From assembly GCA_028534125.1 (NCBI GenBank), contig CM052816.1:18726001-18790000 (forward strand): DNA of 64,000 bases, in the 5' to 3' direction. Numbering within the stretch: position 1 is the stretch's first letter; every line of letters begins with the position of its first letter. A program made the position numbers and the translations under genes. Source of the DNA: Lama glama. Taxonomy: Eukaryota. The notes beneath the pieces were generated by a model, which worked only from the letters and a program-made list of their open reading frames with translations, was not told the DNA's origin and ran no database searches. Shown here in pieces: positions 33,515 to 56,316 of this stretch.

Positions 33515-33680
33515 CCAGTCATTAACTGTGTATCCTTAAATAAGTACCTTAACTTTGGAAGCCTCAGTTTTCTCATCTGCAAAATGGAAACAATCACAAC
33601 ACCTGCCTCACAGGATTGTGCATGAAGAGAACATGTGCAGAGCTTGATGCAAGTGCCTGGCGCATAGTAAATCCTTAATC
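33515..33680 (+). mobile_element. MIR SINE
   Basis: gcctcagttttctcatctgcaaaatggaa...cctggcgcatagtaa. Confidence 0.8.
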
Positions 33681-33820
33681 GATGGGAGTTACCCTATAGA
33701 TAAAATAATATGACAGAGATGCCCTAGTCCATAAAAAGGATGTTAAGTGTATCCCAGATCGACAAACCAAGAAAGGGTCACAGGTGCCCTGACACCAGGC
33801 TCCCTCCCCTGGCCTCTTAC

Positions 33821-34079
33821 CTTCCTGAAACGGCTGTGTTTGCATCTGCAGCCGGATCTTGATGAGGTCCACGGGTGCTCCCAGCCCAACAGAGACCACA
33901 CCAGCCACCATGCTGGCCAGGAGCAGGTCAGACAGCACATGGTGCGGACCAGCCTCGGGCTCTTGGCACCGATGGTGGCTGAGGAACCTCTGTGTGTTGC
34001 TGAAGACCCCGAACACCACTGAGTTGTAGACAGCGATGCTGGCAAGGGGGAAGGACATGCCCTTGAAGAAGCCGAACAC
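33821..34079 (-). CDS. SLC25A48: SLC25A48 exon 4
   Basis: tctccccacag| VFGFFKGMSFPLASIAVYNSVVFG...GAPVDLIKIRLQMQTQPFQE |gtaaga; 259 nt; second signature PVDLIKIR. Confidence 0.97.
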
Positions 34080-34975
34080 CTGTGGGGAGACCCAGGGGAG
34101 GAAGCCTGAGGGCCCGGGCTGCCCTTGGCAGAAACCCTGCCCTCTTGGAGCCCTCAGGCTGGTGGGGGAGATACCACAGGAAAAGTCAACCAGTACATTG
34201 GTGGAGAAAAATGAAAGAGGATGATGATGTGAGAGGAGAAACAGGGGAGGGTGAGAGCACCCTCGCCCTGAAGAGGAACTGGCTTCTGCATGGAGCTCTG
34301 CTTCCTGAGCTGCAGGATGCTGGGCCTGGAACCTGCATTTGTCACTGGAGTGGCAGTGTTCCTGGACTGAGGCCGAGGGGGAGCCCCAGTGGGTAGTGGG
34401 CTTGCCAAGCATCATACACTCCCTCCTCCTGCGCCACTCCAACAAAAGCATCCTCTGGGCACTGGCCATGTGCCAGGCCCTGGGGACAGCAAGAAAGAAA
34501 CACTCTCCACCCTCACTGAGCTCACAGTTGCGCGGGGGGAGGGGGGGCGGTGGGAAGGAAACCCAGATAGACAAACTGACATGTGCTAAAATAAGCCTGT
34601 GGTGAGGAGGTACGAAGGGCTCCACAGCTCCTCAGGGCACCTGGGTCAGCATGTAGCTGGGTGCCCCTGAGCAAGAGCATCTGTTGGAAAACAGCTAGAG
34701 AGGGTGCCCCCGGAAGGGCAGCACCAAGAGGCTCCTGCACAGGTTGCAGGAGGCTGAGAGAAGCCAGGGTCCCTCCCACACTGTATTCTCAGTGAACACC
34801 ACAGATGCTCCACTGAAGTGGGAAACTTCCATAGGCCCTTAGAAGAAGGAGTCAGGGCAACACAGATGACACCTAAGACAAAAAAGCACTGGGAAGCTGT
34901 GGTAAAAACTCCACGCCATGCTCAAACCCACTAATCCTGCCCTGCATGTGTGGACCCTATTTGCCAGGGGCAGGA

Positions 34976-37215: not shown

Positions 37216-37715
37216 NNNNNNNNNNNNNNNNNNNNNNNNNNNNNNNNNNNNNNNNNNNNNNNNNNNNNNNNNNNNNNNNNNNNNNNNNNNNNNNNNNNNN
37301 NNNNNNNNNNNNNNNNNNNNNNNNNNNNNNNNNNNNNNNNNNNNNNNNNNNNNNNNNNNNNNNNNNNNNNNNNNNNNNNNNNNNNNNNNNNNNNNNNNNN
37401 NNNNNNNNNNNNNNNNNNNNNNNNNNNNNNNNNNNNNNNNNNNNNNNNNNNNNNNNNNNNNNNNNNNNNNNNNNNNNNNNNNNNNNNNNNNNNNNNNNNN
37501 NNNNNNNNNNNNNNNNNNNNNNNNNNNNNNNNNNNNNNNNNNNNNNNNNNNNNNNNNNNNNNNNNNNNNNNNNNNNNNNNNNNNNNNNNNNNNNNNNNNN
37601 NNNNNNNNNNNNNNNNNNNNNNNNNNNNNNNNNNNNNNNNNNNNNNNNNNNNNNNNNNNNNNNNNNNNNNNNNNNNNNNNNNNNNNNNNNNNNNNNNNNN
37701 NNNNNNNNNNNNNNN
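37216..37715. other. Assembly gap (500 N) in SLC25A48 intron 2
   Basis: Run of N. Confidence 0.99.
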
Positions 37716-38566
37716 AATCTGGAAGTCAGGGTGAGGAGGCACTATTTGTGGTTGTGTTCTCAGGCTATACCTCTAAATGCTTCTCCTCATGGCGGGCAGA
37801 TGGCAGGGAGACAGGTGGAATCAAAGAATATCCCTTTGTAACATCTCACTTCTCAATGATTTGATGTGTTGTGTGACCTGCGGCTACATCTTTCCTCTTT
37901 CTGGGCCAGTCTCTACATCTGCAGAACAAGGGGCGTGGATGTTCCGACTGCCAGATGGCTTGGCTGGCTCCATCAGGTTAGAATGGCTTCCCATTCCCAA
38001 CCTAAGCCCAGAGCCCTAACCTGATAGTCAAGGCCTCCAAGGACTGAGTGCCGACCTACCTGCCTTTCCTGGATTCTGATCTGTGGCTGCTTTCAGAAAC
38101 CTGATGCATCAGCAGCACTGGCCATGCTGGCCTTTCCCGAGCACGGCACCCAGGCAGTGTCTCCACCTCAGTGTCTTTGCCCGTGCTGTGCTCTGGGCCT
38201 GGAATATCGTTTCTCAACACCCAACCTTAAATTGTGGGCTCCGATGCCACCTTACCCTGGAAGCCTTTCTGGTTCCTTAATTCCAGAAAGACTTACAGAA
38301 CACTCACCAGTGCCCCGGCCCCCTCCCCGGCAGCTCATGAGAATCTGGAGGCAGAAATGGAACACTTACAACAACAAAATTGCTGCCAAGCAATGAGGGT
38401 AGAGCATTCCAAACCAGGCCTCCTAGCACTCCACCCCCACGGGCTGGCACAGGGACCCGGCCCTGGGCTGGAGACTTTCTGGGAATCAGAAACAGCAGGC
38501 AAGTTCCTAAAGGCAAACTCATTACAGACCCCTTTCCTGAACGTAATGGCAACATGGCTACTGTAC

Positions 38567-52009: not shown

Positions 52010-52015
52010 TTTATT
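52010..52015 (-). terminator. Poly(A) signal AATAAA for the candidate gene
   Basis: tttatt on the + strand, about 515 nt downstream of the candidate stop. Confidence 0.5.
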
Positions 52016-52530
52016 TACAAGGCAGTCTCTGATCTCTGTACCTCACACTTAGGCAGGTGGAACCTGCTCCCTCCCCTTTGTGGAGACACTTTGGAGACAG
52101 ATGGTCTCCACTGGGCAGATTTTCCAGCTGGCAGAGCCTGGCAGGGGGCAGTTCCCAGGTGAACATGGGGTGCAGGTTGAGCTCTCCCCTCTGCTGAGGC
52201 AGATCCCGGGGTGGAGCTGTCCACTGGCAAGGTTCAGGGTCTTCTTTCTAGCCCAACAGGAGAGCCTGCTGGGGTTTGGGCTCCTCTCGCCAGCCCTGAA
52301 GGCTGTGGGCAGTGGGGCGGGGAAAATGAAGGCCTGAGGACTGCAGTCCCTGGCCAGCTCCAGGCCCAGGGCAAACAGAGCTCTGGGAACCTCACCCCCA
52401 GCTATCTTCATCCTTCGCTGATCAGCTGGTGCTAGGGGCTGTTCTCTGGTGGTTCCTGCCGCTGTCAGCTCCTGCTCCCTCATAGTGTGGCCGCACTGGG
52501 CCTGGGCAGCTTCTCTGTGGGCTCCTGGCC

Positions 52531-52761
52531 TCATGGTGGAGAGGCAGGAGGCCCAGGGCTTGTGTGCAGCCCCTCCTCAGGGGTTCTGTAGTAAGGCACA
52601 AATCCTGAAGCACAAAGGGCCTGGCTGCTGAAGGCAACGTCGCTGGAGAGCGGGGCATCCAGGCTGCTGTCTTGGGAGTTCCCTGCGGAGACCAGCTGGA
52701 TGGGGCAGCAGGTCGGGGAGTGAGGGGGCCCAGAGACGAGGTCTGAGCCTGCAAGACCAAC
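52531..52761 (-). CDS. Unidentified protein-coding gene candidate, last exon
   Basis: Branch point and tract gctgactgtcttgtctccttccgacccag|; phase 0; VGLAGSDLVSGPPHSPTCCPIQLVSAGNSQDSSLDAPLSSDVAFSSQALCASGFVPYYRTPEEGLHTSPGPPASPP*. Confidence 0.65.
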   Translation of the reverse strand, partial: VGLAGSDLVSGPPHSPTCCPIQLVSAGNSQDSSLDAPLSSDVAFSSQALCASGFVPYYRTPEEGLHTSPGPPASPP

Positions 52762-53004
52762 CTGGGTCGGAAGGAGACAAGACAGTCAGCCGGGTTCCCA
52801 GGTTCAGCCTGCCACCTAGGGTTGGCCTTTGCTTCCACTCCACAGTAGTGGTAGGGGAAGAAGGCAGGGCCAGGCCTGTTCTATAGATGGAAGCACCCAA
52901 GATGTCACTCACCATGCTCAGGGCTCCCAGCTGGAAGGCATGCACCTGAGATTAGAACCCACTTATCCTGCCTCTTCTGTGTTTGCAGTCATAGGCCATG
53001 GTGC

Positions 53005-53420
53005 TAGCTTCATGGTTATAGGGCATGAGCTTTGGGTCAAATCCCAGGTTTGCTCTTGCTAGGGGTGTCTTTGGCCAAGTCACTTAACTTCTCTGAGGCT
53101 CATTTTTCTCATCCAAAAAAATGGGAATAATAAGACCTATCTCATAGGACTACTATTAGGACAAATGAAAAGATGAATGTGAAATATTTGTCTGGGTACC
53201 TAGACTAAACAAGTGTTTCTGCAGGGGAACAGCAGGCTAAGCCTGGTGTAATAAACACATAATTGTACACAATTCTCACAATGGCTGTCTTTTATAAGGA
53301 AACTGAGGTTCATGAGGCTTAAACACATTGCCCAGGCCGCTCTCAGATCAAGTGGCCGAGCTGGGATTGAGTGAGGCAGCCCACCTCCAGTCTCCGCGCT
53401 CTTAACCAACGACACACTGC
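53005..53420. mobile_element. Two MIR SINEs in opposite orientations, in the last intron of the candidate gene
   Basis: caagtcacttaacttctctgaggctcatttttctcatc (+) and aaggaaactgaggttcatgaggcttaa (-). Confidence 0.75.
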
Positions 53421-53551
53421 TTCAGGAGCCCCAGATGACCTCAGGGGACCTGGCCAAGCCTATGGGGGTCTGGGGCCTTGGGACAGAAGTCTGAAGGATG
53501 CCAGGGCACCTAGTGCTGCTCCCTGCACCCTCCTGTGCCTCCCCGACTCAC

Positions 53552-54007
53552 AGAACACCCTCTGCTGTCTGTCATCCTGCAGCATCTGCAGCAGCAAGCC
53601 TGCGTCCCCCTCCTGGTGGGGACGTCCTGGGAGCCTGCACATGACCTGCCAGGAAGGGCCAGGCTGGGAAAACTCTCCTCCTTGGAGCGGTAGTAAGGGA
53701 AGAAGCCACTGGGTGGTCCTGAGTCCTCTGGGAACAGCCCCTCTCTGATACTCTGGTCTCTTCCTCGGTCCCTGCAAACCTCAGGGGCCAACTCCTCCTC
53801 AGCCAGGAGCTGCCCGTAGGTGCGGAAGAAGGGCAGGTACTCCAAGGCCACTCGGGGCCCATGGGAGAAGTCAAGGTTGCTGAGGGGCTCACTGCCCCTT
53901 GCACTGGTGGCCTGTAGTTGCTGGGATGGAGGCTCTGAATTGTCCTCCTCCAGGAGGCCCAGAGAGGGCAAAACTTGGGGTTCAGCCTCGCAGCTCTTCT
54001 GGGAAGT
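53552..54007 (-). CDS. Unidentified protein-coding gene candidate, penultimate exon
   Basis: cctttctcttcccag| TSQKSCEAEPQ...ALEYLPFFRTYGQLLAEEE...SGFFPYYRSKEES...TDSRGCS |gtgagt; 456 nt open, phase 0 at both ends. Confidence 0.65.
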
Positions 54008-54059
54008 CTGGGAAGAGAAAGGTGTTCCACCTGGTATTGCATCCAACTTCCCCAGCCCC

Positions 54060-54900
54060 TCCAGCTCCCTCCCCAACTCCTGCCTACGTTGGTGGCTCTC
54101 TTTGGTTAAAACCCAGCGGTGGCTCCCAACCATGGTCAGGTTACCCACAAGCCTCAGAGGACCCAGCCCTGCCAGCATCTGCAACCTCATGGTGCATCCT
54201 CCTCCCTGCAGGACACACTGATCTTCTTGCCCTTCCTCAGTCACACCAAGCAGATCCCGCTTTAGAGCCTGTACTTGGATCTGCTCTTGGACCTCTGAAG
54301 CCTTCCCAGTCCCTGCCTTCACCGGGTGATTCTGGATCACTCTGCCTTCACTTCCGCTCTGAAATGTTTTTCTTGGTCAATGGTCTGCCTGCTGTGTGTG
54401 GTGGTCTTGTCTGTCTGGTGCTCCTGGCTCACTGGAGGCACTCAACTGATACTTTGCCAACAAATGACCTGTCTAATCTGCTGACTCTCAGTGCATCTCA
54501 CGTGCCCTTCACTCTGGCCAGTCCAGCCACACAGACCTTCTCTCAGTCTTTCTCACTCACCAAGCATCCTCTTGCCACAGGGCCTTTGCGCTTGCTAACG
54601 CTGCTGCCTGGACTCTCCCCCCTCTTCTTTTTCCTCATTGACAGCTTCTCCAGCTCTTGGCTTAAGGTCATTTCCCTTACTGCCCTGATTTAGCTGCCTC
54701 ACTCTACCATGGACTCCCACCACCCTGATACCACTCATTCAGAACGCAACACCATTCCTCTGCTGGGAAACATTCATCTGCATGATTACTTGATTAATAC
54801 CTTTCATTCCACTAGTTAAAAATCCTGTCTTCTGTATCCTTGGGGCCAGAACAGCTCTGGCATACAGTAGATATCAAATATTGGAAGAAAGAAAAGGAAG
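54060..54900 (+). mobile_element. L2 fragments
   Basis: ttaaaacccagcggtggctccc, ggcactcaactgatact, gccacagggcctttgc, tctggcatacagtagatatcaaatatt. Confidence 0.65.
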
Positions 54901-55609
54901 GTTGGAGGGAAAGAAGGAGAAAGGAAGAATACTGAACTGTACTTTGCCAGGAACAAAGTCCAATGTCACAGGAGGGAGAAGCCACGTCTTGGGGGGAGTG
55001 TGGGGTGGGGAGTGAGGAATTACTTCCCAGGCCCTGAAGGGATATAGGGGCCCAGAACACCTATCTATCTGTGAAGAACCAGCCCATCTCCACCTTTGCG
55101 TGTCAGGGCCATGGGTACATGCTGGGGTTCATGGGTACACATGTGGCCTCTGGGTCCCACAGGAGTGACCTATTGTGGTCTGGCCCTGGCCTCCTTCACT
55201 CTCACTGGGGCCTCTAGGCCTTGAGCCCTTCCTCCCCCATCACATGCCATGGGTCCTTGCTGGCCTCAACTCCTGTGTGCAGTGTGACCACAATGCAAGG
55301 TCTAAACCTTGGTAAGTGCCTGCTGTCCCACAGACTGCAAATTCCTGAAGGTCAGGGACCAGGCCCTCCTCTGAGTCCCGCGTGCCCATCTCAAGCCACT
55401 TTGCAGAGTTTCTGCCACTTTCCAGACACCCCATGGGCTGTGCTGGGCAGCCCTCTCTCTGCTGTAGCCCTTAGGGGGCCCATGAGGACAGACTTGTCCT
55501 TCCAGCTTTGCAGCACCAAGAAAATAGGACAGACTAGTGGCTGTGCCAGGGTTTGAGGCCAAGTCTGCCCTGCTCTGAAGCCTGTGCTCTTTTCACTGTG
55601 ACTTACATG

Positions 55610-56046
55610 GCATCATGGGTTGAATACTGTCCCCGATAAGATATGAGGTCCTAACCCCTGGTACCTGTGAATGAGGCCTTATTTGGGAATAGACTTTTTG
55701 CAGATGCAATCCAGTTAAGATGAGGTTCCCTACATCCAATGACTGGTGTCCTTATAAGATGAGGGGAATTTGGAAACAGACACAGGGAGGATGTCATGTG
55801 ACAAGGGAGGCAACGATTGGGGTGATGCTGCCACAAACTAAAAATGCCAAGGATGCCAGCAACCATCAGAAGCTAGGAAGGAGAGAGGCAAGGAACAGAT
55901 TCTCCCTCTGAGCCCCCAAGAAGGAACCCTGCCCACACCTTGATTTTGGCTTCTGGCCTTCAGAACTGTGAAAGAATAAATCTGTGTTGTATGAAGCCAT
56001 CCAGTGTGTGGTGACTTGTTATGGCAGCCTGAGGACACGAGCTCAT
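55610..56046 (+). mobile_element. MLT1-type (ERVL-MaLR) solo LTR
   Basis: tgggtttgaatactgtcccc...gtgaatgaggccttatttggg...gaagctaggaag...cagaactgtgaaagaataaa...ttgttatggcagcc. Confidence 0.9.
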
Positions 56047-56205
56047 AGAGGTGGTTGGATGGCTGGTTCATGAATGAAAGGCACCTGGCACACAGATGAA
56101 GACTTGCAGGGCTCTCCCAGCACCCCCTGGTGAGCAGCTTGTGGGGAGAGGCCCATTGCCGTGACCTCGGGTGCCCTCTGTGGGCTGGGCTCACCTAGGC
56201 CTTAC

Positions 56206-56316
56206 CCTTCCTGCCATGTGGTGGCGCTGGCCTGGGTGGACCTGTGGTGGACCAGCCACTCTTCTGCACCTCACTCTTTTCCCGCCTGGGCCCTGGCTCC
56301 ACTTCCCCAGCAAGTC
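56206..56316 (-). CDS. Unidentified gene candidate, internal exon
   Basis: ctgaactccttcaatccag| DLLGKWSQGPGGKRVRCRRVAGPPQVHPGQRHHMAGR |gtaagg; 111 nt, phase 0/0. Confidence 0.4.

Follow-up and report, generated by a model that had tools for sequence, protein, structure and literature searches.

A short aromatic peptide motif with the core P[YF][YF]R[TS] recurs three times in a predicted single-copy, three-exon protein gene on the minus strand of a 64,000-nt stretch of the Lama glama genome (contig CM052816.1; hereafter the window, in whose coordinates all positions are given). The start codon of this gene is placed at 56217 and its stop codon at 52531-52533. As judged from the gene models of other species, the three motifs go back to the amniote ancestor and have been retained ever since, with drift in the intervening linkers, and the locus is very probably a real protein-coding gene whose repeated motifs are under selection. 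Because mammals, reptiles and birds have all kept these peptides in a small, apparently unstructured protein, the motifs are most likely binding sites, and a mechanism of multivalent docking, taken as a whole, is held with moderate confidence.

Motif copies and chance expectation

The original prediction was that three aromatic-x-P-[YF]-[YF]-R-[TS] peptides are distributed over two exons of the minus strand of the window, and all three were recovered where it had placed them, namely EYLPFFRTYGQ from 53842, GFFPYYRSKEE at 53707-53675 and GFVPYYRTPEE at 52605-52573. In the six-frame scan, motif 1 (EYLPFFRTYGQ, residues 60-70) occupies 53810..53842, motif 2 (SGFFPYYRSKEE, residues 104-115) occupies 53675..53710, and motif 3 (SGFVPYYRTPEE) occupies 52608-52573, all on the minus strand. 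Motif 3 runs on through a conserved Leu and then a Ser-Pro (LHTSPGPP), and together with this extension (SGFVPYYRTPEEGLHTSPGPP, residues 208-228) it spans 52546..52608.

A pattern search over all six frames confined the core to these three sites in the whole 64-kb window. Dinucleotide-preserving shuffles of the window (n=200) contained the core 0.265 times on average and reached three copies in 1 of 200, while the longer pattern [FYWL]xP[YF][YF]R[TS] turned up 0.07 times per shuffle and reached three copies in none of the 200. When the 232-residue protein was shuffled 200,000 times, at least one core motif arose in 288 cases and at least two in 0. The repetition of the motif is therefore not a product of chance.

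A relaxed pattern, [FY][FLV]P[YF][YFH], matches seven times in the whole window, with three of the matches corresponding to the true motifs and three to T-rich low-complexity runs. A fourth, degenerate motif-like stretch (PGPAFFPYHYCGVE) was observed on the minus strand at approximately 52833-52874, within intron 2, in a different reading frame and some 100 nt short of exon 3. At the DNA level it is identical to motif 2 at 16 of 19 bases, and it may represent either a decayed motif copy or a chance resemblance.

Gene structure

The frames were joined under the guidance of the best protein match, a Vicugna pacos model named "uncharacterized protein" (P0003, 232 residues), and all junctions could be placed in the window. 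Motifs 1 and 2 lie in an open frame of 288 codons (53510-54376) and motif 3 in one of 84 codons (52531-52785). The spliced open reading frame of 232 codons is intact, and both of its introns are GT-AG and phase 0; the product is identical to P0003 at 230 of 232 residues. The supposition that the gene is real is thus borne out insofar as the open reading frame is intact, can be spliced and is conserved in many species.

The coding part of exon 1 (56206..56217, minus strand, as are all features of the gene) reads ATG GCA GGA AGG, encoding MAGR, and is followed by a GTAAGG donor at 56205; the MAGR start is common to the models of Vicugna, Tursiops, Rousettus, Myotis, Oryctolagus and Peromyscus. 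Intron 1 (54008..56205, 2198 bp, GT...AG, phase 0) has the boundaries AGG/GTAAGG and TTCCCAG/AC. Exon 2 (53552..54007) comprises 456 bp or 152 codons and carries motifs 1 and 2 together with a Cys cluster. Intron 2 (52762..53551, boundaries TCT/GTGAGT and CCCAG/GT) has exactly the length of 790 bp that had been claimed for the intron between motifs 2 and 3, and since it is in phase 0, these two motifs share one frame after splicing. The junction of exons 2 and 3 reads ...RGCSV/GLAGSDL..., the same as in P0003, and the coding part of exon 3 (52531..52761) consists of 76 codons plus a TGA stop (52533-52531). A candidate poly(A) signal, identified by consensus match only, is the first AATAAA after the stop, located approximately 520 nt downstream (52010..52015).

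Within intron 1, beside exon 1, the segment 55990-56160 of the minus strand contains an in-frame ATG that opens the reading MGLSPQAA.... This stretch resembles the N-termini of the Odocoileus and Equus models (MGLSPQAARQ... and MDRSPRAAPRG...), and some species may accordingly use an alternative first exon or retain the intron. In seven RNA-labelled runs from two studies, the contigs contain 0.21-0.40 of the words sampled from a stretch that is approximately 51% exonic, which gives a weak hint that the gene is expressed.

Single-copy locus and absence of a repeat origin

The three peptides could in principle derive from a DNA-level repeat or a transposon, or from a chance or decaying frame in a non-coding transcript, in which case the locus would encode no functional protein. 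Features that accommodate such an explanation are that the database entries are all automatic predictions, that no paper on the gene was found and that the motifs have eroded in some lineages. The genomic evidence points in the opposite direction. A protein search of the species' own 2.35-Gb assembly returned this locus alone below E=1, with no sign of the many copies of a mobile element; exon 2 DNA matched only itself in the same genome, and a sensitive blastn search of the window with exon 2 and exon 3 as queries likewise gave self matches only, revealing no DNA similarity between the segments that carry the motifs. Motifs 2 and 3 are identical at 9 of 12 residues and at 23 of 36 bases (64%), with different codons at four of the nine shared residues, and the codon pairs quoted in support of selection on the protein (AGT/TCA, GGC/GGA, TTC/TTT and CGC/AGA) were all read correctly. 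Rfam produced two matches far under their gathering scores (20.5 vs 98 and 16.8 vs 53.5), with no family reaching threshold.

A transposable-element origin of the motif segments is contradicted by the single-copy locus, the self-only blastn matches and the low DNA identity of the motifs. The same evidence upholds the earlier view of selection on protein rather than a DNA repeat, together with the retention of the motifs across amniotes, including birds, reptiles and monotremes, in which neutral DNA would no longer align. With the motif count beyond chance and the exons free of repeat matches, the explanation without a functional protein is largely refuted and can be regarded as extremely improbable.

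Intron 2 is a different matter. Its positions 401-481 (window 53071-53151) match three other sites of the window with 74-79% identity in blastn, and these three further matches indicate an old interspersed repeat, putatively MIR. Of the earlier description of this intron as "MIR-containing", the presence of an old repeat at about 53071-53151 therefore stands, and the name MIR is tentative. A search of an intron piece against the DNA of the species' own genome gave the self match only, although such a search is insensitive to old repeats.

Homologues across amniotes

Predicted homologues of the llama protein are found in placentals, marsupials, monotremes, turtles, squamates, a crocodilian and birds. 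A word-index protein search recovered 103 homologues, all of them from placental mammals or unnamed contigs. A profile built from the alignment of 28 placentals (A1) and run exhaustively against 1.84 billion proteins gave 71 matches at E<=1e-3, and ten weak matches to this profile that were looked up belong to Macrotis, Monodelphis, Ornithorhynchus, Platysternon, Pelodiscus, Pogona, Hemicordylus, Alligator, Struthio and a kangaroo rat, under names that are either 'uncharacterized' or evidently wrong. A further profile of sauropsid, monotreme and marsupial sequences (A3) retrieved 59 proteins, including those of snakes, geckos, many birds and the echidna. No amphibian or fish relative is named among the 120 matches listed or the 59 A3 matches, although such searches can miss distant relatives.

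The entries belonging to this family include the 'uncharacterized LOC' models of human (LOC107986453), Monodelphis (LOC103098944), Ornithorhynchus (LOC114806561), Pelodiscus (LOC112544638) and Struthio (LOC104141062), in addition to Vicugna P0003, and a few entries bear the misleading names ABCA13, collagen alpha-1(I)-like, TPRXL, FAM47C and SLC25A48. A scan of metagenomes for orthologous DNA yielded only two bacterial chance matches, on soil-type contigs (L001:89-247 and L002:299-451); in both, the bacterial-looking frame (...KPYYRSLEEGLH; ...RGKPYYRSLEEGLH) was rejected as a chance look-alike of motif 3.

At least one strict motif is present in all 103 placental proteins scanned and in all 63 non-placental ones. 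At least three are present in 20 of the 103 and 20 of the 63, many of the entries being fragments or unspliced frames. The LOC models named above and P0003 generally share three copies in a common order, except that turtle orthologues have four. The 334 strict-motif instances collectively give the consensus [GE][YF][FLV]P[YF][YF]R[TS]x[EG][EQ]x[LF]. In the Callithrix jacchus model P0074, a 22-residue unit containing motif 2 (VPYYRSEEESVPSLAPPGWSHR) has been tandemly triplicated to give five motifs, which indicates that the motif copy number can change by tandem duplication.

Conservation pattern

Alignments of 28 placentals (A1) and of 16 amniotes (A2) show that conservation is concentrated in the three motif blocks. 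Among the columns conserved at >=90% in placentals, 25 of 27 fall within the blocks, the other two being L23 and C147; in amniotes the blocks hold 14 of 15 such columns, the fifteenth being Met1. Inside the blocks the most frequent residue accounts on average for a fraction of 0.82-0.87 in placentals and 0.61-0.73 in amniotes, vs 0.60 and 0.37, respectively, in the remaining columns, and the 12 best-conserved 7-residue windows all lie in motifs, as would be expected of short conserved islands. The suggestion that the motifs should stand out as conservation peaks is therefore confirmed by both the best columns and the best windows. Outside the blocks the protein is barely alignable across amniotes. 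Motif order and spacing are retained.

The individual residues follow this pattern closely. In motif 1, E60 is found in 26 of the 28 placentals, L62 in 28, P63 in 27, F64 in 28, F65 in 26, R66 in 22 and T67 in 27. The corresponding counts for motif 2 are 27 for G105, F106 and Y110, 28 for P108 and S112, 25 for R111 and 26 for E114. In motif 3, R215 and E218 are invariant (28/28), and G209, F210, P212, Y213, Y214, E219, L221, S224 and P227 are each kept in 27 of 28; S224, which belongs to the extension, is also kept in 15 of 16 amniotes. The Ser or Thr immediately after the motif Arg is present in 27-28 of the 28 placentals at each copy.

In sauropsid proteins, a second conserved stretch was observed approximately 15-20 residues before motifs 1 and 3, with the forms [DE]F.[ST]EL[ST]LFN[DE]L and SEIS[LF][LF][ND].L, and mammals retain faint traces of it (SEPLSNLDLS and DSGLDAPLSSD). 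Given this repeated pre-motif stretch, the original unit of repetition may have measured about 40 residues.

Predicted structure and composition

The llama protein has no predicted fold. AlphaFold2 with A1 returned a mean predicted local distance difference test score (pLDDT) of 52.1 and a predicted template modelling score (pTM) of 0.12, with one three-residue helical turn as the sole secondary structure; for a turtle orthologue modelled with A3, the mean pLDDT was 43.5 and the pTM 0.13, essentially without secondary structure. Small pLDDT maxima are located at motifs 2 and 3 in both predictions. As a prediction, this agrees with the disordered scaffold that had been envisaged. The protein is acidic, with an isoelectric point of 4.78, rich in Ser, Pro and Gly, and composed to 62% of disorder-promoting residues; its maximum 19-residue hydropathy of 0.87 reveals no hydrophobic segment. 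Pfam assigned 0 families to the window pieces and to P0003, and among 16 family members only one showed a match, which was below threshold (GSCFA, E 0.08). A PDB profile search gave 0 matches at E<=10, and the ESM Atlas gave no usable match.

The aromatic residues are concentrated in the motif blocks (12 of 15, including all six Tyr). Pairs of Tyr and Arg can act as stickers, and it could accordingly be proposed that the motifs serve self-association or condensate formation through clusters of Tyr/Phe and Arg on flexible linkers. Aromatic residues placed beside an invariant Arg in a chain without a predicted fold are what such a role would involve. Generic stickers, however, usually tolerate shuffling, whereas conservation here is position-specific: flanking positions outside the search pattern are constrained across the 334 instances (G/E at -3, E/G at +6 and L/F at +9), the Pro and the Ser/Thr persist in 27-28 of the 28 placentals, and the spacing and order of the motifs have been retained through amniote evolution. 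A role in self-association is thus considered unlikely.

Proposed docking mechanism

In the favoured mechanism, each motif copy would dock the same folded domain of a putative partner, and with equivalent copies the protein would function as a multivalent adaptor. Hydrophobic contact would come from the aromatic-Pro-aromatic-aromatic core, and charge contacts from the invariant Arg together with the acidic pair. The invariant Ser/Thr beside the Arg is a candidate phospho-switch, as is the conserved Ser-Pro that follows motif 3.

Tandem-tyrosine Y-Y-R segments in the activation loops of receptor kinases resemble the motif, and the motifs might instead be mainly substrates of modifying enzymes, phosphorylated on the tandem Tyr or on Ser/Thr, rather than constitutive docking sites. 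The order of Y-Y-R, an invariant Ser/Thr and acidic residues would suit this role, and PYYRS also occurs in the nephrin tail, according to a construct table in PMC6857567. Motif 1, however, is Phe-Phe in placentals and still conserved (F64 in 28 and F65 in 26 of 28), and the first Tyr of motif 2 is replaced by His or Phe in 5 of 28, which argues that it is the aromatic contact that is selected and not tyrosine phosphorylation. In addition, the conserved footprint of 13 residues exceeds most kinase consensus sites. A function mainly as enzyme substrate therefore appears quite improbable.

Several observations count against the docking mechanism or narrow its reach. The protein looks disordered, but low AlphaFold2 confidence is compatible with disorder and is no proof of it. 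The residue two positions after the motif Arg varies among Y, E, K, P and S in the 334 instances, and for this reason none of the known consensus sequences of kinases or domains accommodates every copy. The sequences from other species are automatic gene models or bare open reading frame calls, and neither Mus nor Rattus has an entry among the 103 homologues or the 120 matches listed, which proves nothing alone. Furthermore, the motifs themselves are altered in several lineages. The Arg of motif 1 is replaced by Cys in catarrhine primates (EYLPFFCTYG) and in Camelus, and by His in several rodents; in motif 3, macaque and orang-utan have His or Asn in place of Pro; and isoform X3 of human LOC107986453 is devoid of motif 3. 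The human and chimpanzee models examined have a different ending, without this motif. The primate changes (models P0071, P0072, P0075, P0080-P0082, P0160, P0168 and P0170) may reflect either relaxed constraint or model errors, and in some lineages there are signs of relaxed constraint on the motifs. Finally, the camelid protein ends approximately 17 residues early through a stop codon. The TGA sits where other orders read Trp (...SPLWGQEPTGKLPRPRAATL), and in frame behind it, the remains of the old C-terminal tail (GQEPTEKLPRPSAATL and its stop) persist at 52480..52530 on the minus strand. The truncation is judged to be camelid-wide because the vicuna and dromedary models stop at the same place, and the C-terminus accordingly reads ...SPGPPASPP in llama vs ...PRPRAATL in other orders.

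C-terminal tails in birds and reptiles

Proteins prenylated at a CaaX box follow the rule that a Cys lies four residues from the C-terminus. The llama protein, which ends in ...ASPP, does not have such a box, and therian orthologues in general are without a CaaX-like tail but keep the Cys cluster (C147). Among the non-placental entries, by contrast, 29 of 63 end in C-x-x-x after a conserved W[DNS][FL]xxx, with the tail C[ALSP][VAL][CS]; these come from birds, turtles, lizards and the alligator (P0135, P0139, P0152, P0154, P0181-P0186, P0193, P0197-P0199, P0202, P0203 and P0215-P0220, among others). The likeness to CaaX-box proteins thus holds for these relatives and not for the window protein. 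The CaaX-like box in birds and reptiles suggests that the ancestral protein may have been prenylated and membrane-anchored; with such a tail, it would be held at the membrane by a lipid.

Comparison with known motif classes

Disordered adaptors with repeated short linear motifs are a general class in which the binding domain has been established in the known examples. The llama protein resembles this class in having short conserved islands, several in number, in a poorly conserved chain with no predicted fold; the difference is that the binding domain here is putative. Several individual ligand classes were considered and set aside. WW-domain LPxY, CK2 S/T-x-x-E and 14-3-3 modes each fit only some copies or lineages, Homer PPxxF is found in placental motif 2 only, and Crk-type YxxP is found in placental motif 3 only.

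Among known classes, Phospho-FFAT gives the nearest formal fit. A small residue at position 5 is one criterion of this class. According to PMC7705450, Phospho-FFAT is a ligand of VAP-type MSP domains, with an aromatic residue at position 2, a phosphorylated Ser/Thr at position 4 and acidic residues after it. If the second aromatic of the motif is taken as position 2, the reading becomes [YF]-R-[ST]-x-[EG]-E, and the aromatic and Ser/Thr positions agree in 334 of 334 instances, as the search pattern itself dictates; the Pro that motif 3 has at position 5 is shared with STARD3. However, the upstream acidic tract is absent, its place being taken by G/E-Y/F-F/L/V-P, and position 5 varies among Y, E, K, P and S, with the bulky Y, K and E frequent, instead of being a small residue. 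Nothing in FFAT corresponds to the conserved [GE][YF][FLV]P that precedes the core. Moreover, 2,079 of 20,373 human proteins score as Phospho-FFAT candidates according to PMC7705450, and a loose fit therefore means little. The assignment was not adopted.

The nephrin tail segment ...EAEPYYRSLRDF... shares PYYRS with the motif and is likewise part of a disordered tail (PMC6857567). It differs in being a single copy, in being without the flanking [GE][YF][FLV] or E-E and in being absent from all profile-search matches, and the resemblance was accordingly dismissed as coincidence.

No paper on the gene was found by locus identifier, motif string or position upstream of SLC25A48, and no name or Pfam family was found. 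The linear motif [GE][YF][FLV]P[YF][YF]R[TS]x[EG][EQ]x[LF] is apparently undescribed.

Neighbourhood of SLC25A48

SLC25A48 encodes a mitochondrial carrier, the exons of which were mapped with a Galemys model bearing this name to 43565-43461, 38611-38561, 34079-33816, 19253-18978 and 16674-16528 on the minus strand of the window; the large exon can also be recognized from the open frame at 33675-34631. This mapping puts SLC25A48 approximately 9 kb downstream of the motif gene, with both genes on the minus strand and head to tail. A run of 500 N, which may be an assembly gap, is present at 37216-37716, inside the SLC25A48 region.

Given this arrangement, the exons described above might be alternative 5' coding exons of SLC25A48 that add a disordered N-terminal extension to the carrier. 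The first coding exon of SLC25A48 lies on the same strand about 9 kb downstream, and exon 2 contains a usable alternative donor at 53645..53646 (CAG/GTCATG, cut at 53646/53645), recognized from sequence only, right after ...SLALPG. Two models, Galemys P0070 (the SLC25A48 fusion) and Camelus ferus P0007, depart from the gene structure given here after SLALPG, and P0070 joins motifs 1 and 2 to the carrier, being the sole model to show such an in-frame fusion. The Talpa P0040 and godwit P0209 models also carry the name SLC25A48. Yet the godwit entry contains no carrier sequence, and most models, including that of Talpa, which is without the carrier part, stop on their own codon after motif 3. The fusion would skip motif 3 and its SPGPP extension, which are conserved like motifs 1 and 2. 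It is therefore very unlikely that the exons belong to SLC25A48.

Biological significance

A more far-reaching version of the docking mechanism can be formulated, in which the motif is a new linear-motif class carried by an amniote-wide disordered family, ancestrally lipid-anchored, that would recruit up to three or four copies of one partner domain under Ser/Thr phospho-control, and in which the conserved adjacency to SLC25A48 would reflect shared regulation or function. This combination is put forward tentatively, and the balance leans somewhat against its holding in full. For annotation, the locus is better kept as protein-coding than demoted to non-coding RNA. The finding forms part of the vertebrate 'dark proteome', as a gene extending from birds to mammals for which the databases list nothing beyond automatic 'uncharacterized LOC' models. 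A freely drifting chain with three 13-residue peptides that hardly vary offers a specific experimental handle on the partner, and if the motif is a new ligand class, it would be searchable in other proteins.

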